Shown: positions 6,635-63,898, numbered from the whole stretch's first letter. The stretch is 63,898 bases of DNA, filler included, from Psammoneis japonica (GCA_008632985.1; 4 parts of 4 records of this genome joined end to end with filler, not necessarily neighbours in it); one strand, 5' to 3'. The notes: generated by a model from the letters alone, not told the origin. Numbers and translations are program-made.

Positions 6635-6865
6635 TGCACTCCCTCTGTCAGGCAGGATGGGTTGGTGCCATGTGGCGCATCCGGCCAAGGGAGGAGTGGG
6701 TTCGAAGCCCAGCCGCCCACCCCGGATGGGGTTGGAAAGGGGCAGGCCAAGAAAGAAAAGGAGGCTTCAATTTGAGGCCAATTCAAGCCAGCAACCTCAG
6801 GAAGCGCAGCACACATTCAGGCATGTGTTGTGAACAGCATCGTCGCACAGCATTTGTCCAACTGA

Positions 6866-8885
6866 ACATGACAGTTTTCCTTGAAAAGACATGTTTGTTT
6901 TCCTTGAAAAGACATGTTTGTTTTCCTTGAAACCACATGTTTGTTTTCCTTGAAGCCACATGTTTGTTTTCCTTGAAATGACACGTTTGTTTTCCTTGAA
7001 AAGACACGCTTGTTTTCCTTGAAACAACATGTTTCTTTTCCTTGAAAAGACATGTTTGTTTTCCTTGAAAAGACATGTTTGTTTTCCTTGAAACCACATG
7101 TTTGTTTTCCCTGAACATGTTTGTTTTCCTTAGAAACACACATTTGTTTTCCTTGAGACGACATGTTTGTTTTCCTTGAGACAACATGTTTGTTTTCCTT
7201 GAAAAGACATGTTTGTTTTCCTTGAAATGACATGTTTGTTTTCCCTGAAACGACATGTTTGTTTTCCTTGAAACCACATGTTTGTTTTCCTTGAAAACAC
7301 ATGTTTGTTTTCCTTAAAACGACATGTTTGTTTTCCTTGAAAAGACATGTTTGTTTTCCTTGAAACCACATGTTTGTTTTCCTTGAAACCACATGTTTGT
7401 TTTCCTTGAAAAGACATGTTTGTTTTCTTTGAAACTGCATGTTTGTTTTTCTTGAAAAGACATGTTTGTTTTTTTTTGAAAAAACATGTTTCTTTTCTGT
7501 GAAACCACATGTTTGTTTTCCCTGAAATGACACGTTTGTTTTCCTTGAAAGGACACGTTTGATTTTCTTGAAAAGACATGTTCGTTTTCCTTGAAAAGAC
7601 ATGCTTGTTTTCCGTGAAATGACATGTTTGTTTTCCTTGAACCACATGTTTGTTTTTCTTGAAAACACATGTTTGTTTTCCTTGAAACGACATGTTTGTT
7701 TTCCTTCAAATGACATGTTTGCTTTCCTTGAAAAGACACCTTTGTTTTCCTTGAAAACACATGTTTCTTTTCCTTGAAACCACGTGTTTGTTTTCCTTGA
7801 AAAGACATGTTTGTTTTCCTTGAAATGACACGTTTGTTTTCCATGAAACAATGTGTTTGTTTTCCTTGAAACAACACGTTTGTTTTCCTTGAAAACACAT
7901 GCTTGTTTTCCTTAAAACGACATGTTTGTTTTCCTTGAAAAAACATGTTTGTTTTCCTTGAAACAACACGTTTGTTTTCCATGAAACGACATGTTTGTTT
8001 TCTTTGAATCCACGTGTTGGTTTTCCTTGAAACGACATGTTTGTTTTCCTTGAAATGACATGTTTGTTTTCATTGAAAAGACATGCTTGTTTTCCTTGAA
8101 AAGACACACTTGTTTTCTTTGAAACGAAACGTTTGTTTTCCTTGAAACGGCATGTTTGTTTTCCTTCAAAAGACATGTTTGTTTTCAAGACATGTTTGTT
8201 TAAAACAAACATGTCTTTTTAATGGCATGTCAGTTTTCCTTGAAACGACATGTTTGTTTTCCTTGAAACCACATGTTTGTTTTCCTTGAAATGACGTGTT
8301 TGTTTTCCTTGAAACGACATGTTTGTTTTCATTGAAAAGACATGTTTGTTTTCATTGAAACGAAATGTTTGTTTTCCTTGAAAAGACATGTTTGTTTTCT
8401 TTGAAACCACATGTTTGTTTTCCTTGAAACGACATGTTTGTTTTCATTGAAAAGACATGTTTGATTTCCTTGAAACGACATGTTTGTTTTCCTTGAAACG
8501 ACATGTTTGTTTTCCTTGAAAAGACACATTTGTTTTCCTTGAAACAACATGTTTGTTTTCCTTGAAACGACATGTTTGTTTTCCTTGAAAAGACACATTT
8601 GTTTTCCTTGAAACAGCATGTTTGTTTTCCTTGAAATGGCGCATTTGTTTTCCTTGAAACAACATGTTTGTTTTTCTTGAAAACACACAATTGTTTTCCC
8701 TGAAACAACATGATTGTTTTCCTTGAAATGGCGCGTTTGTTTTCTTTGAAACGACGTGTTTGTTTTCCTTGAAACGACATGTTTGTTTTTCTTGAAAAGA
8801 CATGTTTGTTTTCCTTGAAACCACATGTTTGTTTTCCTTAAAATGACGCGTTTGTTTTCCTTGAAACGACATGCTTTTTTCCTTG
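6866..8885 (-). repeat. 23-nt tandem satellite, array 3, with a local inversion palindrome at 8187-8217
   Basis: Same unit; AAGACATGTTTGTTT-A-AAACAAACATGTCTT forms 15-bp perfect inverted arms. Confidence 0.95.
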
Positions 8886-9846: not shown

Positions 9847-11555
9847 GGAAGAGGAGACAGGACCACCCAGATGCCGTCATGTCATTTGTGGGAGGAAGCG
9901 CACTTGCCAACGGAAGAGGGTGTGACAGGTTCCATCCTTGGAAGAGGAAACAGGACCACCCAGATGCCGTCATGTCATTTGTGCATGACGTTGGCGCACC
10001 GCAGGTCCTTGTGTCAGATGGCGTGCTGGAAATGGCGGAAGGCCAGTCCAAGGAGATCTGCAGGGAATGCAGGATGCACCAGGAGGTGTCCACCCAATGC
10101 AGCCCCTGGCAGAACCTGGCCGAGGCATCCATTTGTGAGTTGAAGAAAAGAGTCCGTGTGACTCTGCGCCGGACTGGCGCTCACAGACGACTTTGGTCCC
10201 ACAGCGCCAAATGGACATGTGACATCCGACGCATGATTGCAGCCTGTGTGTCAGACGTGGGAGGACGAGTCCCAGAAGAGGAGGTGACAGGTTCAACACC
10301 CGACATCTCTTCCCTCTCTCTCTTTGATTGGCGTCAACCTGTGCATTGCTGCGTGCCTGTGGTGGAGTTCCCACACGAAAAAAAGTGCGTTGGCCATTGG
10401 CTTGGCGCAGCAGACAACTGCACTGATGAAATGGCATTCATTGTTTTGCCCGAATCAGGCAAACCCATCATTCGGAAGGATGTGTGGGCCATGCCGGAGG
10501 ATGACCTTAAAACTCCGGTGATCCAGACGGATCTTGCATCGGTCGACCAAGCTTTGATCAAACGGCTCAGCACCCCGGAAAAGGGCGCCAGCGCTGACTT
10601 CCCTGAACTCCCTGATGACTTCATGGACGAATGGGACGATGCCGTTGAACCTGTGGAACCCGACGCTTCCAAACCGGAAGCTGATGAGCACACCCTGGAA
10701 GGGCTGGATGAATGTCTCACAGCTCAAGTCATGTCACCACGAGGAGGCGAGCTGACTCATGCTGGGGTCATTGCACACAAGTGAGAATGGTGACGGGGTT
10801 CCTGTTGGCACTGGGAACGACTTGAGGACATGCAACGTGGAATTCCCTGATGGATCCACCGACTCCCATGCTGCTGACACAATTGCAGAGAACCCATTCA
10901 CTCAGATCAACTCTGAAGGGAATGCCCGCCAGATCATGAAGGAAACAGTCGATCACTGACGTGATGCCCGTTGCAGTGTGCATGCAGACAAAAGGTTGTT
11001 TTTGTCACAACCTTTGTGACATTTAAATTGCAACACGTCGCCGTGATGCATTGGCTCTTGTCAGCAGCTGCGCACTGCACTTCTCCCCATGTGTCGCGCG
11101 TCCATGCGGCACTTGGCTGACGTGCACTGACACTGCACGGTTTTGGCGGAACAGTGTGGGTGCGTGCGAAGGAACACACAGAACTGCACAGAGTTTTGCG
11201 CGCTCGACAGTGATCAACGTTGCTGCGGACAACTCCCGCTCAGAGTTTCGAACCCCTGGCCTCCTGCCCAATGGTTGCGATGAACCACTCCGCCAAAAAT
11301 TCATGATGCAGCATGCATGCAGACAAAAGGTTGTTTTTGTCACGACCTTTGTGACATTTAAATTGCAGCACGTTGCCGTGATGCATCAACTCTCATTGGC
11401 AGCTGCACATTGCACCGTGCTGCAACGGCCAATGACGGGTGCACAACGACCAAGACTGGCAGGCGCGCTCCTGGGAGGACGACTGCAGGCTGGGACCTGC
11501 GAGTCGAATGGAAGGATGGGGCTGCATCCTGGGTTCCTCTTAAGGATTTGAAGTC
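9843..11555 (+). mobile_element. Second copy of the Copia integrase region, extending to a chromo-like segment; interrupted by a TRIM
   Basis: 9888-10330 duplicates ~2305-2745, then continues GHWLGAADNC...IIRKDV...AADTIAENPFTQINSEG...ETVDH and, after the insert, RTTAGWDLRVEWKDGAASWVPLKDLK. Confidence 0.85.
10972..11414 (-). mobile_element. TRIM-like non-autonomous LTR element (443 bp): two 108-bp LTRs (10972-11079, 11307-11414), 4-bp target-site duplication CCGT
   Basis: Direct repeats with TG...CA ends; CCGT at 10968-10971 and 11415-11418; removing the element restores the host frame GAT GCC CGT GCT; minus-strand polypurine tract ATGGGGAGAAG (11090-11080) abuts the left LTR; weak PBS candidate TGGCGGAGTGG (11295-11285). 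Confidence 0.85.
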
Positions 11556-13005
11556 AAAGAAAACAAACATGTCTTTTCAAGGAAAACAAACGTGTCATTT
11601 CAAGGAAAACAAACGTGCGGTTTCAAGGAAAACAAACACATGGTTTCAAGGAAAACAAACATGTCTTTTCAAGGAAAACAAACGTGTTGTTTCAAGGAAA
11701 ACAAATGTGTGTTTTCAAGGAAAACAAACATGTGGTTTCCAGGAAAGCAAACATGTCATTTCATGGAAAACAAGCATGTCTTTTCAAAGAAAACAAACAT
11801 GTCTTTTCAAGGAAAACAAACGTGTTATTTCAAGGAAAACAAACGTGTCGTTTCAAGGAAAACAAACATGTCTTTTCAAGGAAAACAAACATGTTTTTTC
11901 AAGGAAAACAAACATGTCTTTTCAAGGAAAACAAATGTGTTGTTTCAGGGAAAACAAACATGTGGTTTCAGAGAAAACAAACATGTCTTTTCAAGGAAAA
12001 CAAACATGTCGTTTCAAGAAAAACAAACGTGTCGTTTCAAAGAAAACAAACATGTCTTTTCAAGGAAAACAAACGTGTCTTTTCAAGGAAAACAAATGTG
12101 TCATTTCAGGGAAAACAAACATGTCGTTTAAAGACAAACATGTTGTTTCAAAGAAAACAAACACATCTTTTCAAGGAAAACAAACGTGTCGTTTCAAGAA
12201 AAACAAACGTGTCGTTTCAAGGAAAACAAACACATCTTTTCAGAGAAAACCAAGGTGTCATTTCAAGAAAAACAAACGTGTGGTTTCAAGGAAAACAAAC
12301 GTGTCATTTCAAGGAAAACAAACATGTCTTTTCGAGGAAAACAAACATGTCTTTTCAAGGAAAACAAACATGTCATTTCAAGGAAAACAAGCGTGTCTTT
12401 TCAGAGAAAACAAACGTGTCATTTCAAGAAAAACAAACATGTCGTTTCAAGGAAAACAGACATGTCTTGAAAACAAACATGTCGTTTCAAGGAAAACAAA
12501 CATGCGTTTTCAAGGAAAACAAACGTGTCGTTTCAAGGAAAACCAATGTGTCTTTTCAAGGAAAACAAACATGTCTTTTCAAGGAAAACAAACATGTCGT
12601 TTCAGGGAAAACAAATGTGTCGTTTCAAGGAAAACAAACGTGTCGTTTCAAGGAAAGCAAACATGCATTTTCAAGGAAAACATGTGGTTTCAAGGAAAAC
12701 AAACATGTGGTTTCAAGGAAAGCAAACATGCAGTTTCATGGAAAACAAGCATGTCTTTTCAAGGAAAACAAACACGTCTTTTCAAGAAAAACAAACGTGT
12801 CTTTTCAAGGAAAACAAATGTGTTGTTTCAAGGAAAACAAACATGTGGTTTCAGAGAAAACAAACATGTCTTTTCGAGGAAAACAAACATGTCGTTTCAA
12901 GAAAAACAAACGTGTTGTTTCAAAGAAAACAAACATGTCTTTTCAAGGAAAACAAATGTGACGTTTCAAGGAAAACAAACATGGCTTTTCAAGAAAAACA
13001 AACAT
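11556..13005 (+). repeat. 23-nt tandem satellite, array 5
   Basis: Same unit, forward orientation. Confidence 0.95.
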
Positions 13006-15992
13006 GGATGACAGTGCTTGGCAGTTTTGACTTGGTGAGCAGATGGTGCCATCCATCCGCACACCTTGCAAAGTTGTCCCGATCATCTGCCGATTCAACG
13101 ACAAGACCATGTGGTCCGGGTGTCGACAATTGTTCAGGTGAAGTCTCAACAGCCCGTTGTTTCCATCTCAATGATTTTGTTTTGTCCCGTGCAATCTTCT
13201 GGCACAACAAAAAGCAATCGTTGTCCAGCTGCTTGGAAAATGGTTCCCAAAATTCAGAAAGGCCATGACGATGCATCTGTTGCATCACACAGTTTTGGTG
13301 ATGAAGATTGGATGGGCCGCAGGCAACATCAGACCATGTCTCCTCTTTAGGAAGTGCAGCCGGCACATTCTCATCAACCTGGCTTGTGTTTGTTGTGCCG
13401 GTTTGTTCATTGGATGGCTCAACAGGCTCAGTGTCCTCATCTTGGGTTCACTTTCTGACGATTCGGTCAATTGTTCATCTTGTTGCTTCTTTCCTTTAAA
13501 GCCATCAGCCGTCTTTTTCTTTTTGCTGTCAAAGGATTTATCGCACCTTTTTTCCAGCAGTTTTCTGCCAGCGTGTGTGTGACCAATGATTGCAAGTGCG
13601 AGAAGCTTTCCCATCTTTTTGTCACACGCAAGTTGACTGAGTGTGGAAAGTCCCCCGTCAACTTGAATTCGCGGGCAGTCACATCTCTGACCTGGATGAC
13701 AATGGGATGTGCAGAATGACTCAGATGCAATCCGGTTGCATTCCTCTTTCTGTTTGGTGGACATCTCTCCAATGATTGCCTCCATCATTTGAGGGACAAT
13801 GCCAGCCTCCAATGCATGCATCATGTCAGCAACGGTCATGCCAAATGCACCACGTGGGTTGTCGCCCATGTCAAGTGGAAAGTGAGCATTGTCCACTGTG
13901 TGCTGTCCAAACACTTTTCTCAAAATTTTGGAGCATGCAGTCATTCGGCGAATGAGGGATGAAGCCAGCTCAGTCTCAGCCTTTTTTTTGATGTCATTGT
14001 GCGATTTTTTCAGGAAACGCTTTTAACATGCTGGTGCCAACGGCTGTTGTCATCCTCTGGATCCGGGCCCAATGCAGCTGCAGCGAGCAACTCTGTGAAA
14101 GCTTGGTCAAAAAATTGGCAGACATGGCTCTTCCACAAATGCGTTCTTGATTGAGGATGTCCCCCAACAGGGAGTTGCAATGCATCACAGCTCTGACATG
14201 GCGGCATTGAGTGCCTGTTGTTGCACGAACAATGGGTGGATTTGCCTGGCAATGAAGCAGACCATGGAGAACCTCCTTGAGAATGCGGTGACAGTTGGCA
14301 ACAACAAGGCACCCAAGCTTGTCTTTCTTGTCCAAATTGGGTGTGAATCCAAGTGGACGCCAACAGCGACAGTCACGGCATGCTTCCTCTTGAATCATGG
14401 TGAGTGAGTGCATTGCAGGCTCCATCCCGTGAGGATTGACCGCATCAACTCCGGTCTTGTCCAAGTGATTGACAAGGTGAGCGTGAAAATCTGATGCCGT
14501 TTCCTTGGTGTTGGAGCAACGTTGTTGCCACTCGCCGTCACCCATGTCTTGACTTTGAGTGGACAATCACCAGTCACCAGGACAATCCGGGAACGACATC
14601 TCAACACCGTCAGCCTGGCCAGCGCTGGGATCCAAATCGCCGTCAGTGGGGGGTGGCACACAAGGTGACCAGACATCATTTGGATTGACCTGCAACTTGG
14701 AAAGATCACGGAACACTGGCTTGGTGAAGAGATCCTGCAAGGTCTCAGTGAAACTGCAAAGCGGAAAAGGTGGGGAGCGACGACATTTGGGTCCACCCTT
14801 CTGTTGCTGTGTTGGATTGTCACATTCTAGCATCACAGCAGCAGTGTGGGGGAGAGGAACATTGGGAAATGACCCCAGGAGTTGCTTCATCGCCACGGCG
14901 GTCGTGATGGGTGGCTTTGTCAAATCCAGTCTTTTTTCTGCATGCTCTTCATGCAAAATTCTCACCACTTTGTCAATGAAGTCAATTGCAACACCTGACC
15001 GACGACACAAATGCAGCAAACGCACCATGGGTGCAATGCTGGGTGAGCAGACTGGAGGCACATCAAAATCCTCATCGGGTGCGACATCACGTGGTGGGCC
15101 AAGAGGGTTGTGTTGATCGAGGGAGGAAACAGGATCTTCTGTCGGACGGGAAATTGAGGGGGGGGCCACAACTGCCATCGCAATGGTCGGCTCCAATGAA
15201 CTCAGGAACATCCACAGGACTGTCCTCTCCAAGGGCAGACACACCATCATCTGCAAACAAAACAAATCGGTGGGCATTTTGGGAGGCTGCACTGGCGGCA
15301 GCAGCGTTGGCGGCTGAACGCAATTGACCAGAGCGTCTGACGGAGGGTGGGCGCAGCCCGCTTCTGGCAGAGGGAGGACAAGCTGGAGAAGAATTGTCTG
15401 TTGGTGTGGGAGGAGATGGAGCTGGATTCCAAAGGACTTCGGGGAGGGGAGGAGGGGGTTCGTCATCGGAGAAACCAAACCCAGCAGGATCATCATGGTC
15501 GTCCAGTGACTCATCATCTGGAGGGGGAAGTGCATTGGTGGCAGCAGAAGATGCCGCATGCAGGCGAAGGGACATTTCCTCCTTTTCGCGGCAGGGCAAG
15601 CACTTCTGTAGATGAAGGGCGATGTTGGAAAAGGGGACACGGCAATGGGGGCATTTGGGTTTGTTGGTGTTGGATCCAAGGGAGCCGACGGAGGCGGAAT
15701 CCAGAGGATGAGAGGAAAGAGGTGTTCTGCCGGATGAAGAAGACAACTGGGTTGTGTGGCGCAGCTGTGTCAATGGGGGATGGAGACCAGATGATGCGGT
15801 GCAGCGCCAAGACAGGTGACACTGCACATTGTTTTCAGAGTCAAATCCACGTTGTCCACAACAAGGACAACCAAAAGACTTGGTGGAAATGGCAGAACGG
15901 AGGCAGTCAGTTGCAATGTGCCTGCTGAGGCCACGTTCGGAAAAGAAACCGGCTTGTTTGCACCGTGGACAAACAAGACCATCAGATGACAT
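13006..15992 (-). mobile_element. Decayed Plavaka-like DNA transposase with N-terminal C2H2-like zinc fingers
   Basis: Frameshifted ORFs give CPRC..LSRH and CPCC..CH fingers, LQDLF..PVF..LQVNP, LDKTG, WRPLGFTPNL, LLGD..ERICGR and ADMMHALEAG, which match my recollection of Plavaka-type transposases. Confidence 0.6.
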
Positions 15993-20033: not shown

Positions 20034-20133
20034 NNNNNNNNNNNNNNNNNNNNNNNNNNNNNNNNNNNNNNNNNNNNTTAATTAATTAANNNNNNNNNNN
20101 NNNNNNNNNNNNNNNNNNNNNNNNNNNNNNNNN
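20034..20133. other. Artificial contig linker
   Basis: 44 N + TTAATTAATTAA (stops in all six frames) + 44 N. Confidence 0.98.
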
Positions 20134-22174: not shown

Positions 22175-23231
22175 TTTTTTTTGTCTCTGACAAATTCTTC
22201 AGATAACGAGCAACCGACGAGACAGTCTCTACTTTATCGATATAAACCTTTTGTTCGTCTCTCTTGGGTCGTTGGCATGCCGGTACTGTCAACTCTTCAA
22301 TTTGATCATCGGGGGAACGGCTTGAATTTCTTTCCAAATTCAGAATGAAAACTGAGAACTTCGAGTCGGTCCGTTGGGCGTTGGACATCCGTTGAAATAT
22401 TCATTTTAACCTTAGTAACTGAAGCCTTAAAATTTAGTGTAATCTGTGGAAGTGTACCGTACGAAGGAGAAGTTATTTCCAGTACCGTATGTACTAAATA
22501 CACACTCCACATTATTCATATTTATAAACGTAAAATAATAGACTATTGCATTGGAAGTTTCGAGTTTGATTTGGTTGTGCTCCGTGCATGCCTGCCAACC
22601 GATTTTTTGATGTTTGTTTTACATCTGTTTCCCATAACGCCCCCCTACCTACGTAGTACTGCAACGCTTTCATCTTTGATAGCCACAGCAAGACACACTA
22701 CTTTATGGTCACTGACAACTGTGGCTGAGCCGTCGAACATGCTCATCACAAATATGACGACAAAAGTGTGAGCGTTTCGTCGACCGTTGAAGTGCATTTA
22801 TTATTCTACAGTACTGTACTTTACAAATTGAAATATTTAATATTGTAGCTTCAGTCGTGGTTCACTTATTATAATAATTATACATATATAAATAAAAACA
22901 TTGAACTCTACCGGGGAAGTTATTGGATGCAACTCACAATGTGAAATGGCGCGGTACATAAGGCCTCGACGACCAATGGCGAAGGTTGAGGCAATGTGAC
23001 CATCTCCAAAAGTCAGTTATCTTGCAACAAAAGAGATTATGCGAGGAACAGAACAGTCGCTAGCGCGTCGGCAAAAAGAGCAATCATGGCGTGGCGCTCC
23101 GAAGAATCCTACATGATTCTCCAGTAGTCACACGAAATTTTCAACCCACCAATAGAAATCGAGGCATAACAGAGTTCAGAATGGAGAATTGTAATTTCAT
23201 CATTTATTTCTTGGTTGGGTAGGCACCAAGA

Positions 23232-26059
23232 ATGTGCGGAATTGCTGTAACAATCGATCTGCCTCATGATGGTGGTGGATCCTTGCAACAACAACAAGAT
23301 GGAATCAAACTTACTGAGGAAATGGTGAAAAGGCTCCGTCCTCGGGGACCTGACGACGCTTCTATTTTGCGCATTGGACCCGCCGTGAATAACGAAGGAC
23401 CCGAGGTGATTCTCGGTCATGCTCGTCTGGCCATTGTGGGCGGCGCGGAGGTCCATTTTCCTCTGGCGTGGTCAACTGGGTGGACCAATAAGATGGCTCT
23501 TGTTCACAATGGAGAGACGTATAATTACAAAGAGTTAAAGAAATATTTGATGGAGGAGGGGCTCTGTGCGCCGGAAAATTTCAAGACGGAGTGCGACAGT
23601 GAGGTTTTGCGCGCTTGTTGTGCAACAAAGGGTATTGAATGGACTCTTGGTAAAATTCGAGGAATGTTTGCGTTTGTTCTGGTCGAGTGGTCCGAAGGCG
23701 AAGATTCCCGTGATGATTTTGAAATTAAACGCATTGTTGCGGCAAGAGATACGTTTGGTATAAAGCCTCTATGTTGCGCTTTTGATCCAAGCAAGAGACG
23801 CATCGTCCTTGCTTCTCAGGTCTCCGCCATACCTCCGCGTGCTTTCAACGACGACGACGTTCAGGTCAAGGACATACTTCCTGGGAATTACGTTGAGTAT
23901 GCATTTCACAAGGATCACGAGTTGAAATGGAGCTACTCCTACGCGACTAGTCCATTTGTTTCAAAGGATTTTAATTCGAAAAACATCGTTTCTGGTCGTC
24001 GGATCGAGGGCATATCTGATTTGCTCTCCTACAAGGACAAAAGCTCTCTTGACTCTCTACGAGAAAGGCTAATTGATGCTGTAAGGTGCCGCATTCCACC
24101 CATTGGAACCGTCAAGGTTGCTGTGTTGCTATCTGGTGGACTAGACTCGAGTCTAATTACATCGATTGCTTCTGGACTTGTGGGTGACAACAAGCTATAC
24201 ACATTCAACGTGAGCTTCAAAGATGCCATTGGAACGGATCAAGAATACGCTAGAATGATGCAGAGCCATTTACCCAACGTTCATCACGAGGAAGTCACCT
24301 TCTCTTTTGAAGAAGGATTGGAGGTTCTGCCGCAAGTGATTGAATGTTTGGAAACATACGATGCTGTCAGCGTGCGAGCCGGGGTTCCGCTTTATCTACT
24401 ATCCAAGCACATTCGATCCCTTGGTTTCAAGGTTGTGCTCTGTGGAGAAGGCGCGGATGAAGTATTTGCCGGGTATCGCCTCTTTGAAGCCTATCAACCC
24501 TCGAACAAAGAGGACGTGGCAGCATTTGGCCAAGAACTATGCCGTCGCCTTGAGAATATCGACACGTCTGAGCTGCAACGAGTTGATCGGTGTACGAGCG
24601 CCCATGGCTTGGAGGCACGAGTTCCGTTCTTGGATATCCCGTTTGTTTCTACTGCCATGCAGTTCAAAACAATAGAGGTGAGAGAAATGAATAGAGATGT
24701 GATTTCATGGTTGTCTGTGAAACGTACCTCACATTTTCTGTTTCCGTCATGAAGAAAATGAGTCATATAAGTCTTGGCCGCATCCAGAAGTATATTTTGC
24801 GCCTGGCGTTCAATACGAAACCAACGGATGCTAGCAATCGTGGCGACTTACCAACATCATGGTTGCCACATTCCGTTCTTTTCAGAGAAAAGGAACAGCT
24901 AGCGGATGGCATCGGAAGAGGATGGATCGAATCGATACAGAAGTATGCTGTCGAATCTGAAGGCATCGAGGACAGAGAGTTAGCCGAGAAGGAGTTATAC
25001 AGGCGAATATTCGAGCAAGGTAAAGGTAGCGCATGTGATCTGATTAATTGCGATACCCGACTTGACCTGGTCAGGGAGCGTCAGCAACGACGACAGCACG
25101 GATGGCCACGTAGGTCGAAAGTCTGCACCGGGTTGCCGCAACACAGTCGTTGGTATCCTGCATCAAATGATACAGATATCGAGGGCATAGGATTGATGGA
25201 TCAAGATGTTGATCATTTTCTATCAAATGTTCTAGGTTGGCCGAATCATGCCTGCGAGCCAACACTGGATACATTGAATCGGCTTATTGTTTCAATGCTG
25301 GAGCGCGTCCCCTTCCACAATCTAACGCTGTTGCTGCGCGAGAGGCGCCCCCCTACAAGCGAAGAGATCAAGCAAGACATGATGTCTGGTCTAGGGGGTC
25401 CGTGCTCAGTCGTAAATACGTTTTTCGCTGCTCTTTTAGTCAAGATTGGCTATGGCTCGAACGTATACATGTTGAGTTGTCACATTAATGGGCGTGACGA
25501 CTGCCACGTTGCTCTTCTCGTTCAAATCGACGGGCTTCGTTACTTTGTTGACGTGGCGAATGCAAAGCCATATGATAGGGCCATCCACCTTGCCGATTCA
25601 TCTGCGCAAAAGTCTTTAAATAATTCATTTGACTGGAATCTTTCATTTGATTCAAGTGCGGGACGCATTGAATTGTTGCATTTTGGCAAGATGGCTTTGT
25701 CGTTTGACCCCACCAGAACAGCGCGCTTTCGATCATTTCGTGAAATGATAAAGAGGTCACGGAATGATCCTTCATTCGGTCCGTTTCTCACTGGCCTTCG
25801 CTTCTGCATATACGGTAAGAACGTAACCGAGATCAAGGCGGTTCGAGACATTCGTGTGTACGACGGCACATCCACACGGGACACGAGATGTGTTTCAACC
25901 AAAAGCGAGATACGACGCTTTGCAGAAGAGAACTTCTACCACATTTGTTCATTTCCATCACTTGTTTCCGAAGCTCTAGCTACACTTGACAAGGAGTGCC
26001 CGGACTGGTTCGAAAGAGCTATAGCGAAAGAGAATGAAAGGTTGACTACCGGTAGTTAG
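23232..26059 (+). CDS. Asparagine synthetase B-like amidotransferase fused to an arylamine N-acetyltransferase domain; exons 23232-24677 and 24755-26059, ~916 aa
   Basis: MCGI, RGPD, GHARLAIV, HNGETYN, LLSGGLDSS, GEGADEVFAGY and LEARVPFLD; a 77-nt phase-0 intron GTGAGA...CTCAC...GAAG joins in frame to KMSHISLGRIQKYILRLAF; C-terminal VPFHNL, GGPC, HVALLV and YFVDV give the NAT Cys-His-Asp triad. Confidence 0.88.
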
Positions 26060-31619: not shown

Positions 31620-33787
31620 CTCCTGAACTGTCGTCGTCACCTTGACATGTGTTGGCGGTCTGGCTGCCACTGGCCGTGAAGCAGCACTCCTTGGCAATCA
31701 CACGCCTGTTTAAGCTCCAAACAAGTGTTGCCCATTGTTGTACATGTGGCAATGACCCACAAGTCACACGTGGCTGGCATTGATTGCTCCTGCTGCCCTG
31801 GATGAATTGAAACAACAGAACACAAGCTTGTGAGTCAAAAATCAGTCGAAGAAGAAGGAACAGCTGTTGGGGTGGTTGTTGGATTTAACAAAAACAAGGG
31901 CAAAATCAAGGGCAGCAGGACTCAAAAACCCAGAGGAGGGAGAGGATGATGAAGACAGTGATTTGAGTGCTGCAGGAACAGTCAAACACAATGACACACA
32001 GACAGAGAAGAGCTGATGGAGATGACATTCACGCACGTGTTCACATCACCAGCTTGACCTGTCAAACCACACAACCCAAACTCAGAACTGCCAAGGCCAA
32101 ATGACATGCCTGTGCTGGCAAAGGTGTCTAGAATCCATTCATTGGTGCAGTCAAAGATGCAGCAGCTCTGTCATCAACAGACTTTGTGCAGCTGTGATCA
32201 TGTGAACAAAAATTCTCACACTCACACACACTTGCACCCCATTGCCAGCACCAAAGCCCTGAGTGGTTTGTGTGCTGACATTGTCTCCAACAACAGCACA
32301 TGGACATGATCTTGATCCAGACCACTTGCCTGCATGGTGCTTAAAGGAGCCAAGCATGTGTGTGGTGCAACAGAAAAAGAACAAGAGTCTGCCACAAGTC
32401 AAAACAAACTCATTGAGTGTGGCCACTGTGTGCTTGTTGGAAGTCAAGCAGAAAAAGAACAAGGGCCTGTGCAAGCCAAGAAGCCAAAACCATTTTTTTG
32501 CAAGGCCCCTGCACTTGTTGGAAGCCAAACTTGTGCCCATCTGTGCGCTGGGCTCTGGCCAGCCCCCAACTTGTTGACAACCCCGTTGTCATGCTTGGTG
32601 GTGTGCTGAAGCAAGTCATCATTGTCTCAGTGCCAAAAATCAACAATGGTGGAACCCACAACTGCCATGGTCGGCAACGCAGAACCTGCCACCCATTGCC
32701 CATTGGCACCAATTCTAACAATTTCAGTGCAGTGCTCAGAGGCACAGGCAATGGGGAGACAGCAAGGTTGAGCATGTTGCTGCTCTGGAATGCCCCCTCC
32801 CTCTCAACAGACTTGGTTGCTGCCAACTTTGAAAAGATTCTCCGATGTTCAGTGCAAGCTGTTGCTTGGTTGTAAATTGACTTGAGTCAGTGGCACTCTG
32901 TGAGGAATGCACCATTGCAAACAAACAAAAAAAGACAAGGTCAGGCAAAACTGCAAATCTCATGATGCACACCTGATCCTTGATTTGTGTGAATGGCTTG
33001 CATCCAGTGAGAACAAATTCAAATGAAAGGCATCTGCTGCCACTGTTTAGCCTGCCAGCCCCCCAACAGGGAATGGCTGCATTGGCACATGGAAAACAGG
33101 AGTTTGTGATTCCGTGGGAGCCAGGCCAGTGCTGCACAACTTCCCATCACAAAGTTGTGGCCCGCCTCTGCTGATGCAATGGCAAAAGCAGCAGCGGCAA
33201 AGAAGTTTCTGCTCTGCAGGCTAGAGTGTAAGTTGAGGAGGCCAAAAGACAAGCTGTTGGCACCACACAAACAGGTGGGCATGTGTGAAAGAGAAACACT
33301 TGAGCAGGCTTGAGTTCCTCAAAAGCTGTGACAAGACAACGCGTCATTGATGTGCCAGGGTGAAAATCAGGAAGAGTGCAGACAGCCATCTCAAGAACCA
33401 GAGTTGAGCCTCAAGCTTTGCCACAAGCCTCTGCAGTTGCTGGCAGATGACTCTGAGCTTGGCCAGAGTTCCAACAAGAAGCGCTGTTGTTGAGAAGACA
33501 TTTTCTGCGCACGAGCCACAAAAACTGAGAGAGCCACCCCAAAAAAGCTCTTGCTGCTTCAATTTGCCAGAACCAGAACTCAAAACCATGGTGCAAATCA
33601 ATGTGCTTGGCAACTTGCTTGCAGGAAAGACCACAAAGAATCAGATGCATGACAAAAAGGAGAGACACGACTGACACACCCCCACGTGCGGCAAACGTCA
33701 AATGTGATGTTTGGTTCAATCAGCAACCTGGGCCTGGTGAACCCGGAGGTGCAGAGTGCCACTGTAACACTGCACTGGCAGGGCCCT
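31620..33787. mobile_element. Degenerate repeat island between genes, TpA- and CpG-poor; family not identified
   Basis: Abrupt compositional switch to TG/CA-rich sequence with many overlapping Cys/His-rich spurious ORFs; no convincing motif recognised. Confidence 0.5.
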
Positions 33788-56482: not shown

Positions 56483-59400
56483 CAAATCCGACAAGCAGTG
56501 GCACACTTGGCACACCTCACTTGTGGCACAAGCCCGTGCCCAAGACGTCGAGTGCACCCTAGACTCGTCGTACAAACCGACCAGCCCCGAAGACAAACTG
56601 CTCTTTGCTGAACAGCAAAAGCACGTGTTCGCCGTCTTTGAACGCATCCTTCTCACCGACAAGGGCAAGGCTCTCATTCGCGAAAATGTGGGGTCTTCTG
56701 ACGCACAGACCGTCTGCCGCTCCTTGTCTGAGTGCGCGCTTGCCTCACCCGCGCATCTGTCGAGTCCTCCACCCTGCTCACGCACCTCACCACCGCGCAT
56801 CTTGGTGATGGCACTTGGAAAGGTCCGACCCACGGGTTCATCCTTCATTGGCAAGATCAGTTGCGCAAGTGTGAGGCACTCATCCCAGCCAGTGACCACT
56901 TCTCTGAAGGACAGAAGCGCGTCATGCTCGAGAATGCCGTGCACCCTGTCGAGGAACTCCGTGCTGTCAAGAACCAAGCTGATCAGCATCGCACGCAGAG
57001 TGGCAAGAGCCTCACATGCGATCAATGCTGTGGCTTGCTCCTCTCCGCGCAGCTCAGTGCGACAGCACGTTTCAACCCAAGACGACACCTCGAGCTCCCC
57101 GACGCGCCACACACGCACACGACGTCCACTCCGAGGAACCGTCCGACGATGTGTTCTACGACATTGACAGCGACGTTGACGTCCTTCAAGCCAATGCTGC
57201 CTGCACCCGTGGTCCCAGCCTCACCGGTGTCCAATGGAGACGTCTCCCTCCCGACCACCAACGGCTCTGGGATTCGTTGCCCGATTCCTCCAAGGCGATC
57301 ATCCTTGAGCATTCTCGTCCACCTCCCCGCAACCCGCGAGCCAGCAACTGCCATGAGTCTGTTACGGCCAACCTTCACGACCAACGCCTTGGGAGTGACG
57401 GTGATGTCAACTTGTCCAACACGACTCCTGCTGACTCTGGTGACTCCGCTCCACATGTGGACGCCACTTCGGATGATCCCATCCTGGCGCACCTCACCAA
57501 GTGCAAGCCACTGCCACCCGGTGATCTGCAACGTCTGTTGTCTCCAACCAAGCCACCAATGCCAGTCGACCGGGCCATCCGCCGCTTCCTCTGCCCCGCC
57601 AGCTTCTGCAGATGACACAGAACTCAACGGTCGCACTTGCCGCCGTGTCAACAACCACAATGTCATTTGCTCTGCTTCTGCTCATCGCTCCACACGCACT
57701 GGCGCTCTAGTCGATCGTGGGGCCAACGGCGGCATTGCTGGCGACGACGTTCGCGTCATTGCACGCACCTCTCACCAAGTCGACGTTCAGGGCATTGACG
57801 ATCATCAATTGGTGGACATCCCCATTGTCACCGCTGGTGCCGTCATTGAGACCCAGCGTGGTCCCGTCATCGCCATGCTCCATCAGCACGCATGCACGGG
57901 CAAGGGCAAGACCATCCATTCCTGCGGCCAGCTCGAATGGCACAAACAGGATGTCAACGATCGCTCTGTCAAGGTGCCCAACGGCTTGCAATGCATTGCC
58001 ACTCCTGATGGCTGTGTCATCCCCATTGACATCAAGGCTGGCCTGCCTTGTGTTGCCATGCGACCTTGCACTGACGCCGAATGGGACACCCTGCCCCATG
58101 TCATCCTCACCGGTGATGACACATGGGACCCTTCCGTCCTCGATCACTCTGTCACTGACGACGACCAGTGGTGCGACGCGATCTCTGACCTCCAGGACGA
58201 TCCCACTGCCAACCTGTTTGACGAATGCGGCAACTGCCGTCATCGTGTCGTTGTCAACGAGACCATCATGTCCGCTTCCTTGTCTGCCGATCACGCGTCC
58301 GCCCTCGATGATCACCTCATTCCGAACGACGACGTGTTCTACGAGTGTCATCTGCATGCGATTGACCCCCAGGGCGATGACGTTCCACCTCCGGAGCGCA
58401 CTGTACAGCCCAAGGACCCCCCCTTCGAGTCTCTTCGGCCTTGCTTTGGCTTCCTACCTGCCGATGCGGTCCGTCGTACTTTTGACTGCACCACGCAGTG
58501 CGCCCGCATGCCCGCCGGCACACACCTTCGCAAGGCCTGCAAATCACCCAACCCCGCCCTTAATGTGCACCGCCGCAACGAGCCTGTCGCCACTGACACC
58601 GTTTGTGCCGACACCCCGGCCGTCGACTCTGGTTGCACCAGCGCCCAACTGTTTGTTGGCACCGAGTCTACCGTCACTGACGTCTACGGCACTAAGACGG
58701 ACAAAGAGTTTGTCAACACACTCGAGGATCAGATCCGTGAACGTGGTGCCCCATCCAAACTCATTAGCGACCGTGCTCAAGTTGAGATCAGCAACAAAGT
58801 GCTCGGGATCCTGCGCGCCCTCTTCATCTCTAGCTGGCAAAGTGAGCCTCACCAGCAACACCAAAACTTTGCCGAGCATCGACACCAGACCGTGAAGCGC
58901 ATGGCGAACACTGTCATGGATCGTTTTGGTTCGCCCGCCCATGCATGGCTGCTGGCGCTCATGTGCGTGTGCTTCACACTCAACCACACAGCGTCCCCAC
59001 GTCTCCACTGGCGCATGCCCCTCGAGACTCTCACTGGCTCCACCCCGGACATCAGCCCATTGCTTCGCTTTCACTGGTGGGAACCCGTGTGCTTCCACCT
59101 CGATGACTCCGATTGGCCGTCCGAATCCCGTGAGTTGCGTGGACGCTTCGTTGGCATTGCTGAGCACGTCGGCCACCAGATGACCTTCAAGATTCTATCT
59201 GACGAGAATCAGAAGATCCTCTGCCGGTCCAACGTCCGCTCCGCTGCCCCCGATCCTGCCGTTCGAAACCTGCGTCTTGATCCTCCTGATGGGGAGCCAC
59301 CTGAACCCATCATCAAATCTCGCCATGACGACAACCCCGTCGACTCTCCTGATGGGGAGATCAGGACACCCAAGATGCCAGTTTTCGATCCGCAAGACAT

Positions 59401-61633
59401 CATTGGACGTGCCTTCCTCATGCAGCCACAAGAGGACGGACAACGCCACAGAGCTCGCATCGTCAAGGCCGTCGAAGACCACGAATGGAAAGTGAACGGC
59501 AATCCCGAGCTCACTAAGTTCGTCTGCTCTGTCAACAATGACGAATGCGAGGAAGTCCTTGCCTGCAATGACATCATGAATCACATTGAGCAAGAAGACG
59601 AAGACACCACTGTTTGGAAATTTCGACGCATCGTGTCACACGAAGGACCTCTGAAGCCTCACGACCCAACCTGGAAAGGCTCCAGCTACAACATCATGCT
59701 TGAATGGGAAAGTGGGGAGATCACGTCCGAGCCTCTTGCCATCATCGCCAAGGACGACCCCGTCACCTGTGCCATCTATGCACGAGAGAACGGACTCCTC
59801 GACACGGATGGCTGGAAGCGGTTCCGCACCATCGCGAGGCGCCAAAAGAAGCTGTTTCGCATGGCCAACCAAGCCAAGCTTCGCTCCTTCCGCACTGCAC
59901 CCCGCTGCAAGTGTGGATGCGAAGTTCCCCGGAACTGCAAACACGCCATGTCACTAGACGAACGCAACGGCAACCGCAAGTGGGGAGACGCAACTAATCT
60001 CGAGATGGACCAACTCGACGAATACGAAGTCTTCCATGACTGCGGGCCCTTCAAGTCTTCCACTCCTCCTGCGGGACACAAGAAGATCCGAGTGCACCTG
60101 TGTGCGACGTGAAACACGACGGTCGCCACAAGGCACGACTCGTAGCCGACGGGCACCTCACGGACGCACCTGTCGACAGTGTCTGCTCCGGAGCAGTCTC
60201 CCTCCGTGGCCTTCGGCTGATGATTTTCCTGGCCGAACTCAACGAGTTGGAGACATGGGCCACCGACATTGGCAATGCCTGCCTTGAAGCCACCACCAAG
60301 GAGAAGCTTTACATTGCAGCTGGACCCGAGTTCGGCAAACTCGAAGGACACATCCTTGTCATCCACAAGGCACTGCATGGACTGCGCAGCTCCGGTCTCC
60401 GCTGGCACGAGCGCTTCGCCGACTGCCTGCGAGCTGAAGGCTTCTTCCCCTGCCGCGCCGAACCCGACATTTGGATGCGCAGGAACGGCGACCACTGTGA
60501 ATGCATTGCCGTTTATGTGGATGACCTCGCCATTGCCATGAAGGACCCTCAATCTTTCGTCGACACTCTCACGGAAAAGCACAAGTTCAAGCTCAAGGGT
60601 GCGGGACCCATTGAGTTCCATCTGGGTTGCGACTTTTCCCGGGAACCCGACGGAACCTTGTGCCTGTCTCCGCGCAAGTACATCGAGCGCATGGTCGACA
60701 GCCATGCCCGACTGTTTGGGGAGAAACCTGCCACCAACGCCCTGTCACCTCTAGAGAAGGGTGACCACCCCGAACTGGACACTTCCGAACTGCTGGGACC
60801 CGATGGCATTCACAAGTTCCAGTCTCTTGTTGGTTCACTCCAATGGGCAGTGTCCCTTGGTCGAATTGACATCACCACGGCCGTCATGTCACTCTCTAGC
60901 TTCCGAGCTGCGCCCCGTCAAGGCCACTTGGATCGTGCCAAACGCGTCTGTGGGCACCTCTCCAAGATGCGACACGGTGCTCTCCGCGTTCAGACGGAAG
61001 AGCCCGACCATTCGGATCTCCCTGCTCCGGCCTGTGAATGGATGCATTCCGTGTGTGGTGAAGCAGAAGAGATGATCCCGAAGGACGCTCCACCGCCCCT
61101 TGGCAAGTTCGTCACTGCCACCCACTACGTCGATGCAAACTTGTGCCATTGCATGCTCACCGGACGCTCTGTCATGGGAATGCTCCACTTCCTCAACAAA
61201 TTCCCGGCTGATTGGTTCTCTAAGAAACAAGCCACCGTGGAGACTGCGACCTGCGGGTCTGAATTTGTTGCCGCAAGGACTTGTGTTGAGCAGATTGTCG
61301 ACCTGCGCATCACCCTGCGCCACCTTGGCGTCCCGATCCGCAACGTTAGTTGCATGTTCGGTGACAACAAGTCGGTTGTAGACAGTGCCACCATCCCGCA
61401 CTCCAAGTTACACAAGCGACACACCGCACTGTCGTTCCACCGTGTGCGTGAGGCAATTGCCTCTGGTCACCTTGAGTTCCACTTCATCGAAGGCTCCCGC
61501 AACCCTGCTGACATTCTCAGCAAGCATTGGGGTTGCTCCCAAATCTGGGACCTTCTCCGCCCCCTCATGTTCTGGAACTTCATTCCATCCGAAGTCGAAT
61601 CTGTTTCTGTGGCTCCTCAAGCAAACTGGGGAG
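56483..61633 (+). mobile_element. Near-complete Ty1/Copia (CoDi-type) gag-pol: gag, protease, integrase, chromo-like domain, RT, RNase H; several frameshifts
   Basis: ALVDRGANGG (protease), VATDTV/LISDRAQ/EPHQQHQNFAE (integrase), DVKHDGRHKARLVADGH, DIGNA.LEA, AVYVDD (RT), VDAN..H, GSEFVAA and FGDNKSVV..NPADILSK (RNase H); frame changes near 56750, 57050, 57560 and 60100; polypurine-like GGGGAG ending at 61633. Confidence 0.95.
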
Positions 61634-61842
61634 TGACAGGATTTGAACAGGATTTGGGTGCGCGCGAAGCATCGCGCGCTGTTTAGTTTACCGTGCACAG
61701 TTTTGTGTGCTTTAGTTCCGCGCGTTCACGCGCGATGTAGTTTGCTTTCGAGCCACAAGGCTCACAAGAACAACAACAGCAGCCCGATTGCACCGACTTG
61801 CACGTCTTTCGGCTCCTGCAACGGTCTCTGAGCGGAGACTCA
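61634..61842 (+). repeat. Probable 3' LTR of the Copia element (~209 bp)
   Basis: Starts TGACA directly after GGGGAG; candidate end ...GAGACTCA, where CpG-rich sequence gives way to CpG-poor flank. The 5' LTR is not in the contig, so the end is unconfirmed. Confidence 0.6.
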
Positions 61843-63106
61843 TCTGCCATTTAGACAGCAGCAAGGAGCCATTGTTTGAATTCTTGCCATTTGCCTTCAA
61901 TTTCCATCACAAAGCATGACAAGATGCTTTGTTTGAGCTGGCTGATGACAACAGCAGCACAGCACTCAACCCCACCAAACTGGATCTCACATCCACACAA
62001 TGCAAGAAGAAACAGCCACATGTGGCTGCCATCTGCAAGATGCCTGACACACGTGAGCTTCTCCAAGCAGAAGCTTGTGAGTGGTGCATGCCAGCATTGT
62101 GCCCAGACAATTGGCCGACAATGCGCAGCCACCATCCTGCTCTGGATGTGCAGGGAAAGGCCAGGACTCCAGGACAAAGTGCTCAAGAAGCCTCAAATGA
62201 GGGCACAACAACCACAAAGAAGACAAGCTGGTGCTCTGTCCCAGGCAGGATGTCAGAGCTGATCAAATGGCAAGCCCAGTGTGCCCAGGTTTTCACTCCA
62301 ACATGCTGAGGCAAACCCACGACACAACAGAGCCATGGCTTCATGGGCCGCTTTTTGGATTTTGCCAATGTCAACCTGATGGCAAGCATGGTTGTAGCTG
62401 CCACCACCACAAAAAAAGCATTTTTTGTGCAGTGCTGTTCTCAATCACATCTGAGTGCAGAAAATGGCGTGCTGCAGTGCAGGTGGATTTTCAAAAACTG
62501 CGAGTGTGAAGAGGCACAATTGTGCCACAAATTTTGTGATTGGTTTGGGGCGGTGTCAAAGACAAACATGTTTGCTGCCCAGCACCAAATTGTTGAGCTC
62601 ACTTGCAAATTTCTGCTGGCCCATGTCACATGGTGTCTCACCCAGTGTCTAAAAACCCTCAGTTGTGTGGTGTGGATGACCTGCAGAAAAGAAAAAAACA
62701 TGGAGCAACAACATTTCCAGCTGTCCAGCACATGCCACAGGCTCAGGACCACCCTCGAACATTCCACACAGCATCTTGACCTTGACAGCTTGCTTCTTGG
62801 CAGTGGAGGACAGTGAGGAGATTGCCAAATGTGATGCTGCTGACACAATTGAGCAGCTGCATGGTGCCGTCAATGCCCGTGAGAACCAGCCGGACAGCAA
62901 GATGTTGTGTGAGCATGAGCTTGAATGGCCACAGAAGGGTGGCTCCAGCTGGTGCTGGTTGCAGTGGAGTCATCACACAAAATTTTTGAATCTTGGGCTG
63001 GATGGCCTGTGCAAGCCAAAAAACATGTCATTTTGTGCCTCTCTTTTCCCCTGTGGTTTTTGGAGACAAGGGTCACCAGCAGAGTGGGTGTTTGTGCACG
63101 CTTCAG

Positions 63107-63110
<4 letters not shown>

Positions 63111-63142
<32 letters not shown>

Positions 63143-63292
63143 GTTTCATCTTGCTTTTGTCCACAGCATGCACTGAGCAGCAGTGCCTTGCTGATGTGAT
63201 CAAAACAAATGCTGCCATTTTCAGGTGCTTTTGTCCACAGCATGCACTGGGCAGCAGTGCCCCGCTGATGTGATCAAAACAAATGCTGCCAC
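63111..63292. repeat. (GA)n microsatellite followed by a ~62-bp direct repeat, within decayed repeat DNA
   Basis: AGAGAG tract at ~63111-63139; TTTTGTCCACAGCATGCACTG.GCAGCAGTGCC..GCTGATGTGATCAAAACAAATGCTGCCA at ~63155 and ~63229. Confidence 0.85.
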
Positions 63293-63898
63293 AGCATTGT
63301 CTCAGCTGTTTGGCACCCCAGAGTGTGCAGTCATTTTTGAAGAAGCAGTTGACAGGTCTGCGCTGACAAGTCTCCTTGACAGCACACAAAGCACCACTCA
63401 GGAATTTCTTCTTCTTTTTCTGCAGCAAATCGTGCTAAATTTGGCCGTTTTACCACTTGTTGGCTTGGTTTGGCAGCTTCAAAAATTCTCATTGCCTGGC
63501 ACTTTTGCTGTTTGTCAATTTGGGTGTCAAGCACTGGCGGCGCTTTCACCCTGCTTTCATTTGTTGACCTGCCCCATTCAGCCCACAGCAAGAAAGAAAA
63601 ATTCCATGCTTGCATCTTGGACAGATGTCAGTTGTGCCCCCCCCACAAACTTTGGCCAAACCAGAGGCATCACACCACATGATGTGCAAAGGGCCGGGGT
63701 GTCTGGCTGCAGGCATTGTGGGGGCAAAGTTCTCAGCAACACAAGCAAATGACTTTTGTTGATCTCAGGAGGAACAGCAGCAGATTTTGAGCCATCTTTT
63801 GCCAAATCTCTTTCTTGGAGTGTGCCTGCACTGCTTTTTTGCAATGCAGATCAGGAGAATGTGCGGGGCCATTCACAAAAGTGCCGCTTGATGCACCC

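Follow-up and report, generated by a model that had tools for sequence, protein, structure and literature searches.

The subject of this analysis is a copy of a Ty1/Copia-type long terminal repeat (LTR) retrotransposon at positions 56483-61904 of a window from Psammoneis japonica (GCA_008632985.1), the window being the whole stretch of DNA that was analysed, 63,898 nucleotides in length and composed of four contigs joined by spacers. Most conserved tyrosine codons of this copy have become cysteine or histidine codons, and TpA dinucleotides are strongly depleted in it. These traces very probably reflect a DNA-level, TpA-directed process, which would convert A:T to G:C pairs on both strands within a silenced repeat domain, of the kind described for Bigelowiella natans and with a preference for T-A-pyrimidine.

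Tyrosine replacement and TpA loss in the Copia copy

A protein search for relatives returned 1995 among 6396 candidates, and 75 full-length relatives (1800-1960 amino acids, from 120 listed) were aligned with the five frame pieces of the copy. Columns at which at least 60% of the 75 relatives agree were taken as conserved; there are 1032 of these, and the copy is identical to the relatives' residue at 837. The initial annotation had described conserved Tyr as replaced by Cys or His with the other residues of the motifs intact, and this was found over the whole alignment, residue types other than Tyr being retained at 68-96% (Ile, the next worst, at 68% and the rest at 71-96%). In the comparison with other replacement classes laid down beforehand, Tyr was by far the least retained residue, at 9 of 52 columns. 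The remaining Tyr columns hold 25 C, 11 H, 5 F, 1 A and 1 W in the copy, compared with 17 C, 62 H (79 C or H together) and 291 F among the 3900 cells of the same columns in the relatives, each of which has at most 2 C and at most 4 H. The codons at the replaced positions are TGC (18), TGT (7), CAC (8) and CAT (3), each a single transition away from TAY, so that the alignment to related Copia polyproteins with a codon count, proposed in the initial annotation as a check, confirmed the loss of Tyr and gave TGY and CAY as its products at 36 of the 43 replaced columns.

Other counts agree with this. With one relative alone (P0004) as the reference, 60 Tyr are aligned and the copy has C or H at 41 of them, and the same measure applied to 80 related metagenome loci gives at most 10%, with a median of 2%. 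Of the Cys of the copy on the aligned path, 28 fall at positions that are mostly Tyr in the relatives, and only 8 at positions that are Cys there. The numbers of Tyr counted originally, 5 in the 1126-amino-acid open reading frame (ORF) and 4 in the 528-amino-acid ORF, were correct; Cys makes up 4.0% and 3.4% and His 4.7% and 5.5% of the two ORFs respectively, compared with medians of 3.83% Tyr (minimum 3.13%), 0.96% Cys and 3.56% His in the 120 listed relatives. Of the motifs quoted as examples, most positions are indeed conserved Tyr, but at three the relatives' commonest residue is F or L: the first C of CDVKHDG, the third C of RCKCGC and the C of QHAC correspond to Tyr in only 21, 20 and 17 of the 75 relatives. 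On the other hand, Tyr that is invariant in 74-75 of the 75 relatives is replaced in the copy, for example in the motifs at about 60280, 60376, 60496-60502 and 61252.

The effect is at the level of the dinucleotide and not of tyrosine. Between 56483 and 61686 there are only 34 TA, an observed/expected ratio of 0.15, with TG at 1.55, CA at 1.28 and CG at 0.93. The coding matches of the 80 related metagenome loci have a median TA ratio of 0.78 (minimum 0.29, maximum 1.12), and the copy thus lies below all of them. At the DNA level, 59519-61460 was compared with 42 relatives, in which 38 positions carry TA in the majority; the copy has TA at 7 of these, TG at 15, CA at 11, TT at 3 and GA at 2, so that 26 of the 31 changed positions are now TG or CA. 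In the same comparison CG was kept at 91%, and CG, GG, CC and GC were all kept at 88-93%. The change is also seen across codon boundaries: among 12 first-position A-to-G replacements (Ile to Val, Thr to Ala, Asn to Asp) the preceding base is T in 7, against 222 of the 1032 conserved columns (Fisher p 0.006), and it is T in 4 of 4 Thr-to-Ala changes at conserved columns. There are in addition three Ile-to-Met changes, with codon ATG. Taken together, about 80% of the ancestral TAs are gone from the copy. Tyr is the residue worst struck because no other amino acid has TA in every one of its codons (TAY).

Protein outgroups, DNA outgroups, cross-codon sites and sister copies all uphold the direction claimed originally from the tyrosine codons, TA to TG/CA on both strands. 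Both strands are struck, as seen in the 25 TGY and 11 CAY at Tyr codons and in the 3264 TG and 3087 CA of the depleted tracts. The expectation that surviving TAs might cluster in tracts, as a sign of processivity, was not borne out: 38 TAs survive in 56483-61904, four of them in the 3' terminal part (61689, 61713, 61738 and 61852), and runs tests on the surviving TAs and on the order of Cys and His gave p values of 0.44, 0.64 and 0.52, revealing neither processive tracts nor runs of same-strand products. As to the description of the copy as young, this stands only relative to the flanking DNA (CG observed/expected 0.93 vs 0.26); the element is younger than its flank in this relative sense only. 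Since the element has lost about 80% of its TAs but few CpGs, the TA process is much faster than CpG decay.

Some other features of composition were noted in the copy. T-to-C changes on the coding strand also occur outside TA (AT to AC at 29 of 95 and TG to CG at 22 of 81, 59519-61460 vs relatives), and C strongly exceeds G (1734 C and 1279 G in 56483-61686). These features probably reflect a lineage preference for C-ending codons and, less probably, a weaker second target of the editor. One metagenome locus was considered as a second case and rejected: L006 (6-2568, marine metagenome) has TA at 0.29 and TG at 1.59, but keeps Tyr at 23 of 30 positions, and its low TA is avoidance at silent sites only, unlike that of the copy.

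Base context of the changes and sister copies

The base context was counted in the TA-poor tracts of the window (1-20033, 38303-46900 and 61905-63898, 30.6 kb). The 61 residual TAs of these tracts comprise 46 YTAR, 9 YTAY, 6 RTAR and no RTAY, whereas the 461 TAs of the ribosomal DNA (rDNA) part are spread over YTAR (114), YTAY (111), RTAR (134) and RTAY (102), a contrast with a binomial p of 1e-16. Many of the residual TAs lie in TTTAAA or CTTAAA. At the Tyr codons, those following a pyrimidine gave 16 Cys and 3 His with 6 kept (binomial p 0.004 for 16:3), and those following a purine gave 9 Cys and 8 His with 3 kept. The TGY/TGR ratio in the TA-poor tracts is 1.26 and the RCA/YCA ratio 1.43, compared with 0.99-1.08 in the rDNA and gene contigs. 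Residual TAs, Tyr outcomes and TGY and RCA ratios all fit one rule, in which the edited A sits in 5'-TAY-3', that is, for changes on the other strand, the changed T in 5'-RTA-3'. With this rule YTAR would survive longest because it is a poor target on both strands, and Cys would exceed His (25:11, p 0.029) because the coding strand of a Tyr codon always offers TAY and the other strand does so only after a purine. This base-context explanation replaced a transcription-strand bias, which had been considered as the source of the 25:11 excess. The two Tyr codons fared alike, with 26 of 33 TAC and 10 of 12 TAT converted. As far as the texts on this process show, the T-A-pyrimidine rule is new relative to them.

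Sister copies were sought in four sequencing runs (X1-X4), which come from one sample and one study, none of them on record as RNA, and which were compared at 85% likeness. Summed word depth is 60,000-108,000 over the element, 170,000-416,000 over its last 460 bases and about 64 over the flank from 61939 onwards. Taking the depth at face value, the family would amount to roughly a thousand copy-equivalents, summed depth not being a copy number. The three small runs assemble the element without the flank, presumably because high-copy DNA alone is deep enough in them to assemble. The 256 variant places in X1 comprise 44 A>G, 63 T>C, 63 C>T, 55 G>A and 31 transversions, and 40 of 257 variant rows were classified according to their sequence state. 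Seventeen of these 40 are TA-derived sites, at which the family carries TA in 30-73% of the depth and the copy CA or TG; the Cys codon at 58067, for example, is TAC in 64% of the family depth. Among the same rows, CA and TG are swapped between copy and family at 57112-3, 57474-5 and 58987-8, so that one ancestral TA has been struck on different strands in different copies. The opposite state is found at 58686 and 58831, where the copy keeps TA and 64% and 86% of the family are converted. In 10 further rows the family has CG in 66-100% of the depth (nine at 82% or more) and the copy TG or CA, which is private CpG decay of the copy; the remainder are one reverse case, in which the copy keeps CG, and 12 other changes. 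No sister copy was found in the protein collection (best matches 76% and 71%), elsewhere in the window or in the 80 metagenome loci, whose nucleotide identity to the copy does not exceed 69.6%.

The element and the surrounding DNA

The copy and its parts are as follows.

56483..61904, plus strand, defective Ty1/Copia-type LTR retrotransposon copy, supported by tblastn, word depth and a TA observed/expected of 0.15
56484..56746, plus strand, polyprotein piece, gag part, frame 3; family contigs carry one additional base behind 56745
56747..57048, plus strand, polyprotein piece, frame 2; one additional base in family contigs behind 57048
57049..57576, plus strand, polyprotein piece, frame 1; one additional base in family contigs behind 57571, the next frame change lying within 57571-57614
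57614..60099, plus strand, protease-integrase part by colinearity, frame 2; 60% identity to P0002 residues 542-1358
60100..61686, plus strand, reverse transcriptase (RT) and RNase H part, frame 1; RVT_2 at 60112-60702 and 76% identity to P0002
61687..61904, plus strand, 3' terminal non-coding part, the most abundant part of the family, with a depth of 170,000-416,000 (bins 61443-61938)

The 528-amino-acid ORF (60100-61686) encodes a Copia-type RT, with a match to Pfam RVT_2 at residues 5-201 (E 2.8e-24, 86.5 bits, cut-off 31.6). The only named RT relative among the 240 matches listed is a protein of the diatom Cylindrotheca fusiformis (P0218, 67%), and this together with RVT_2 bears out the earlier designation as a diatom-type Copia. 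The best full-length relatives are of about 1850-1920 amino acids, with identities of up to 76% over the RT-RNase H part. With P0002 and P0004 as tblastn queries, the match begins at their residues 157-162, right at the contig edge, where the 5' end of the copy is lost, about 160 residues into the polyprotein. From there the path runs through frame 3 (56484-56747), frame 2 (to about 57055), frame 1 (to about 57576), frame 2 (57614-60139) and frame 1 (60100-61608). These five frame pieces imply at least four frame changes, and family contigs carry one additional base at those of the copy (behind 56745, 57048, 57571 and 60096 or 60099). With at least four frameshifts and a lost 5' end, the copy is dead. 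The 1126-amino-acid ORF (56732-60112) has the length and Tyr count given for it originally, but is not one true frame, since the tblastn path changes from 3 to 2, 1, 2 and 1; part of it is open because TAA and TAG are scarce. Across the six frames of the element there are 200 TGA, 33 TAG and 16 TAA, and this rarity of TAG and TAA accounts for its 28 overlapping ORFs of at least 100 amino acids.

The RT/RNase H piece closes at a TAG at 61684-61686, and the alignment to the relatives stops near 61608. The end first given for the element, 61633, had to be moved, as the high-copy part continues to 61904, where loose ends lie in X2-X4; the summed word depth is high up to about 61938. The segment 61687-61904 is presumably a piece of the 3' LTR: the 3' terminal part is 2-6 times as abundant as the interior, as LTRs are. 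No repeat partner of it was found within the window. Pfam gave no integrase, protease or gag match in the window or in the intact relatives P0002 and P0004, which match only RVT_2; the missing matches would thus be a trait of the lineage and not decay. The copy is colinear with relatives of 1850 amino acids that carry RVT_2 at residues of about 1340-1554.

The other features of the window are these.

56383..56482, no strand, artificial contig spacer consisting of N44, TTAATTAATTAA and N44; not biology
61905..63898, no strand, flank, single-copy in X1 with a depth of about 64
49683-51484 (small subunit), 51724-51878 (5.8S) and 52216-55617 (large subunit), complete rDNA unit with normal TA content

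The four contigs of the window are not one genomic stretch. Each of the joints (20034-20133, 38203-38302 and 56383-56482) is a spacer of the same make, across which features are not readable, and the Copia copy opens the fourth contig (56483-63898). According to dinucleotide counts, TA-poor domains lie at about 1-20,100, 31,700-33,700, 38,300-47,100 and 56,500-63,900, and between them are a gene contig and the complete rDNA unit, with TA observed/expected ratios of 0.4-0.8. The ratio is 0.03 in both 1-20 kb and 38.3-47.1 kb, 0.79 in the rDNA part and 0.4-0.6 in the gene contig. TpA loss is thus confined to particular regions beside normal DNA (0.03-0.15 in four tracts). The flank has TA at 0.06, CG at 0.26, CA at 1.87 and TG at 1.76 (computed on 61687-63898), and resembles what the same TA process, together with CpG decay, would finally leave. 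Contigs assembled from X1 over the flank differ from it at 1 of 1188 and 1 of 751 bases, and Pfam gave no match on the ORFs of the flank.

Several observations concern single tracts. Within the flank, the bin 62435-62682 has a depth of 1179, vs about 64 elsewhere in the flank, which suggests a small repeat, and a 66-nucleotide unit occurs in tandem at 63152-63291 with 95% identity and a spacing of 74 bases. The first contig (1-20033) has 47 TA in 20 kb (observed/expected 0.03), with CG kept at 0.55-0.63. It holds weak Copia-like remnants at 2236-2745 and 9921-10535 (26-28% to residues of about 855-1080 of P0002/P0004), which are probably much older converted elements. Matches to the Pfam family LbR_Ice_bind (E 1e-9 to 1e-12) were obtained in TA-free DNA, in the ORFs 6820-7911 (minus strand), 11362-13008 (plus) and 11552-12958 (plus); these probably represent a repeat and composition effect of TG/CA-rich DNA without stops, and no real gene. 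The rDNA unit lies about 2.6 kb from the 9-kb tract 38303 to about 47100 (TA 0.03, CpG 0.14 observed/expected), with a sharp border. At 31700-33700 a 2-kb patch with TA at 0.08-0.11 and CpG at 0.16-0.23 stands amid genes of normal composition, and may be an old insert whose editing did not extend into the adjacent DNA.

The gene contig (21090-38199) carries long intronless ORFs, including a sulfotransferase, a DUF5898/kinase ORF and a 1086-amino-acid glycosyltransferase-GTP cyclohydrolase II ORF. An Asn synthase ORF (23223-24749) adjoins an N-acetyltransferase ORF (24695-26056); the closest named relatives of the former are Thalassiosira proteins (43-45%), in two of which Asn synthase and N-acetyltransferase are fused. 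This contig was also considered as an edited viral insert, its Asn synthase being nearest to giant-virus clusters in the Atlas set. The viral reading was dropped, as the sequence search led to Thalassiosira and the residual TAs show no YTAR enrichment (16%). The window 18S matches the diatom-aimed V4 primer DIV4rev3 (sequence from Table 1 of PMC10376359) exactly at 50563-50584. From the RT relative, this primer match and the Asn synthase relatives, the host looks like a diatom, and the copy would belong to its nuclear genome.

A Copia-type RT is common to this element and to CoDi, the Ty1/copia-like elements of diatoms (Maumus et al. 2009, PMC2806351). Passages of the same study give the LTR retrotransposons of Phaeodactylum as CpG-methylated, and the private CpG losses of the copy fit such methylation. 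Those passages contain no mutational footprint and make no mention of repeat-induced point mutation (RIP).

Mechanism, alternatives and significance

The closest known system is that of B. natans (Mettrop et al., bioRxiv 10.64898/2026.01.13.699255). According to the text of this preprint available, 231 of 302 new nuclear single-nucleotide mutations in mutation-accumulation lines fell into integrated giant-virus and virophage regions, at about 1000-fold the rate found elsewhere in the genome and in some lines only, and 230 of the 231 were A>G or T>C, all at TpA; 324 coding sequences are nearly without TpA, with an enrichment for reverse-transcriptase and DDE domains, and an ADAT2-like adenine deaminase is proposed by the authors. 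Both cases share changes of A:T to G:C only, at TpA only, confinement to regions, and loss of TpA with gain of CpA and TpG, and here too A>G or T>C at TpA accounts for almost all changes (36 of 43 replaced Tyr, 26 of 31 changed TA positions). On the other hand, B. natans is a chlorarachniophyte and the host here looks like a diatom; the target there is a single-copy giant-virus or virophage insert and here a very high-copy LTR retrotransposon with its surroundings; depletion reaches 0.03 over tracts of about 9-20 kb, compared with 0.45 for the B. natans virus region; and the mutations there were measured de novo, whereas here there are traces only, including copies that differ at TA sites. The main text of the preprint, as available, does not contain the terms Copia, retrotransposon, LTR, tyrosine, CpG, trinucleotide, context or flanking. 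Beyond this preprint no report of a TpA-hypermutation signature was found in the library of papers searched, and none in diatoms.

Three other systems bear some likeness. Fungal RIP also consists of dinucleotide-specific transitions in DNA, on both strands, which ruin repeated or foreign DNA and leave a strong footprint. It turns CpA into TpA and so enriches TA (as the B. natans preprint also states), and the present case is its mirror image: TA is destroyed, CA and TG are enriched, the outgroups give TA as ancestral, and neither C-to-T change at CpA nor gain of TpA is found. The APOBEC and ADAR enzymes of animals likewise inactivate retroelements by deaminase-type hypermutation with a neighbour preference, but APOBECs give G-to-A and C-to-T changes, which are not the main class here, and ADARs act on RNA and on one strand, whereas here the changes are not limited to sense-strand A to G within the element, both strands and non-element DNA being struck. 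In tRNA, A34 follows U33. TadA and ADAT2 convert A to inosine in a context near the T-A-pyrimidine found here; TadA acts at the wobble A of tRNA-Arg, and early DNA editors derived from it preferred YAC (PMC7056309). By the passages of that paper available, wild-type TadA is inactive on DNA (PMC7056309). In the present copy, TAC and TAT were converted alike.

In the mechanism proposed, A:T pairs of TpA would be converted to G:C on either strand with other dinucleotides left nearly untouched, the preferred target being the A of 5'-TAY-3'. Tyr codons would thereby become mostly Cys (TGY) when the coding strand is edited and His (CAY) when the other strand is, the latter mainly after a purine, while TAA and TAG stops would be lost and spurious ORFs would open in all frames. 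The process is nearly complete in the flank and in the other TA-poor tracts of the window and has left the rDNA neighbour untouched, and for this reason it would act on domains, presumably of silenced repeat or foreign DNA. The data establish the direction of change, its restriction to one dinucleotide, its occurrence on both strands, the base-context rule, the confinement to domains and the differences among copies. By analogy, the process may be a host genome defence like the TpA hypermutation of B. natans, and the enzyme may be a DNA-acting adenine deaminase of the kind that edits tRNA A34 (TadA/ADAT2). The wider proposition, that diatoms, like Bigelowiella, possess a RIP-like defence working in the opposite chemical direction, in which a deaminase of the TadA/ADAT2 kind edits TAY on both strands of silenced repeat and foreign DNA to near extinction of TA, is put forward tentatively, as a possibility only.

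The sequence does not separate an A-to-G change from T to C on the other strand, and the rule can equally be written as 5'-RTA-3'. The T of TpA could accordingly be the target, a thymine modification or oxidation (of the 5-hydroxymethyl- or 5-formyluracil type) mispairing with G and giving T to C, and thymine hydroxylases are present in several protist groups. This is nevertheless held to be unlikely, given the resemblance of T-A-pyrimidine to the U33-A34 of tRNA adenine deaminases and to the YAC of TadA editors, a resemblance that is not itself a test. Far less credit is due to an ADAR-like hyperediting of the element RNA, by which A after U would become inosine and be fixed by reverse transcription. 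ADARs do favour a 5' U (a point taken from the available text of bioRxiv 10.64898/2026.01.13.699255), and A to G after T is the commoner change at Tyr codons, with 25 Cys vs 11 His, but the 11 Tyr-to-His changes are sense-strand T to C, which is impossible from editing of the genomic RNA. Moreover, the excess of Cys is gone after a purine (9:8), as expected of a process that treats both strands of duplex DNA alike. The depleted tracts hold TG and CA in nearly equal numbers (3264 vs 3087), and depletion goes even further in the adjoining non-element DNA, single-copy in X1, than in the element.

An artefact of sequencing or assembly, in which a modified base or damaged template was misread at TA in some regions, is likewise highly improbable. 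The assembly is fragmentary, with four contigs joined by spacers, single-base frame changes and only one sample; against this, the de Bruijn contigs of X1 reproduce the TA-free flank (1/1188 and 1/751 differences), TA is normal, with sharp borders, in the rDNA and genes of this assembly, and copies carry TA, TG or CA at one and the same site. To our knowledge, no platform error removes TA this completely. The same signature has also been measured with Illumina data as a living process in another alga, as the preprint text available reports. Selection would act if an active lineage had evolved TA avoidance, for instance to escape a TA/UA-directed nuclease or editor, with Cys and His tolerated. 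Many of the copy's states seem to recur in the majority contigs of the family, and a general shift to C-ending codons is seen (AT to AC 29/95, TG to CG 22/81), but Tyr invariant in 74-75 of 75 relatives has been replaced, the copy has at least four frame changes, the non-coding flank is more depleted than the element, and sister copies still have TA at many such sites, so that this explanation too carries hardly any weight.

The preferred reading, a TpA-directed conversion of DNA in a silenced repeat domain, also has points against it. At the Tyr codons alone the contrast between purine and pyrimidine has a Fisher p of 0.07, and the context rule is drawn from 36 converted Tyr codons and 61 residual TAs of one window. 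The assignment of the host is indirect, built on three lines. The runs X1-X4 may be the source of the assembly, and so would not be independent proof against an artefact. Finally, low-coverage contigs of X2-X4 differ from the copy by only about 1-2.5%, so that most conversions look common to the copy and the most frequent variants, and many may be common to most of the family. A rough calculation gives an expected difference of about 1.8% under fully independent conversion with the context rule; consequently, the observed difference is compatible both with descent from a master copy that was already converted and with conversion in parallel under the context rule.

The footprint described only in 2026 is thus found on a retrotransposon family of an apparent diatom, and nearly complete in DNA nearby. 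Some consequences are practical. In such DNA, where only TGA stops are left, gene finders would be expected to meet long false ORFs; repeat libraries and protein profiles would miss elements stripped of Tyr, and ages based on divergence would be wrong unless TA sites are masked. The TAY rule, if true, would be a direct biochemical handle on the enzyme; as a prediction it can be tested on the B. natans mutation list and on candidate enzymes. If the reading is right, the TpA process would be a major shaper of repeat DNA in ecologically dominant algae, and, under the wider proposition above, its occurrence in two distant lineages of the stramenopile-alveolate-Rhizaria (SAR) group would mark it as an ancient defence, widespread among eukaryotes.

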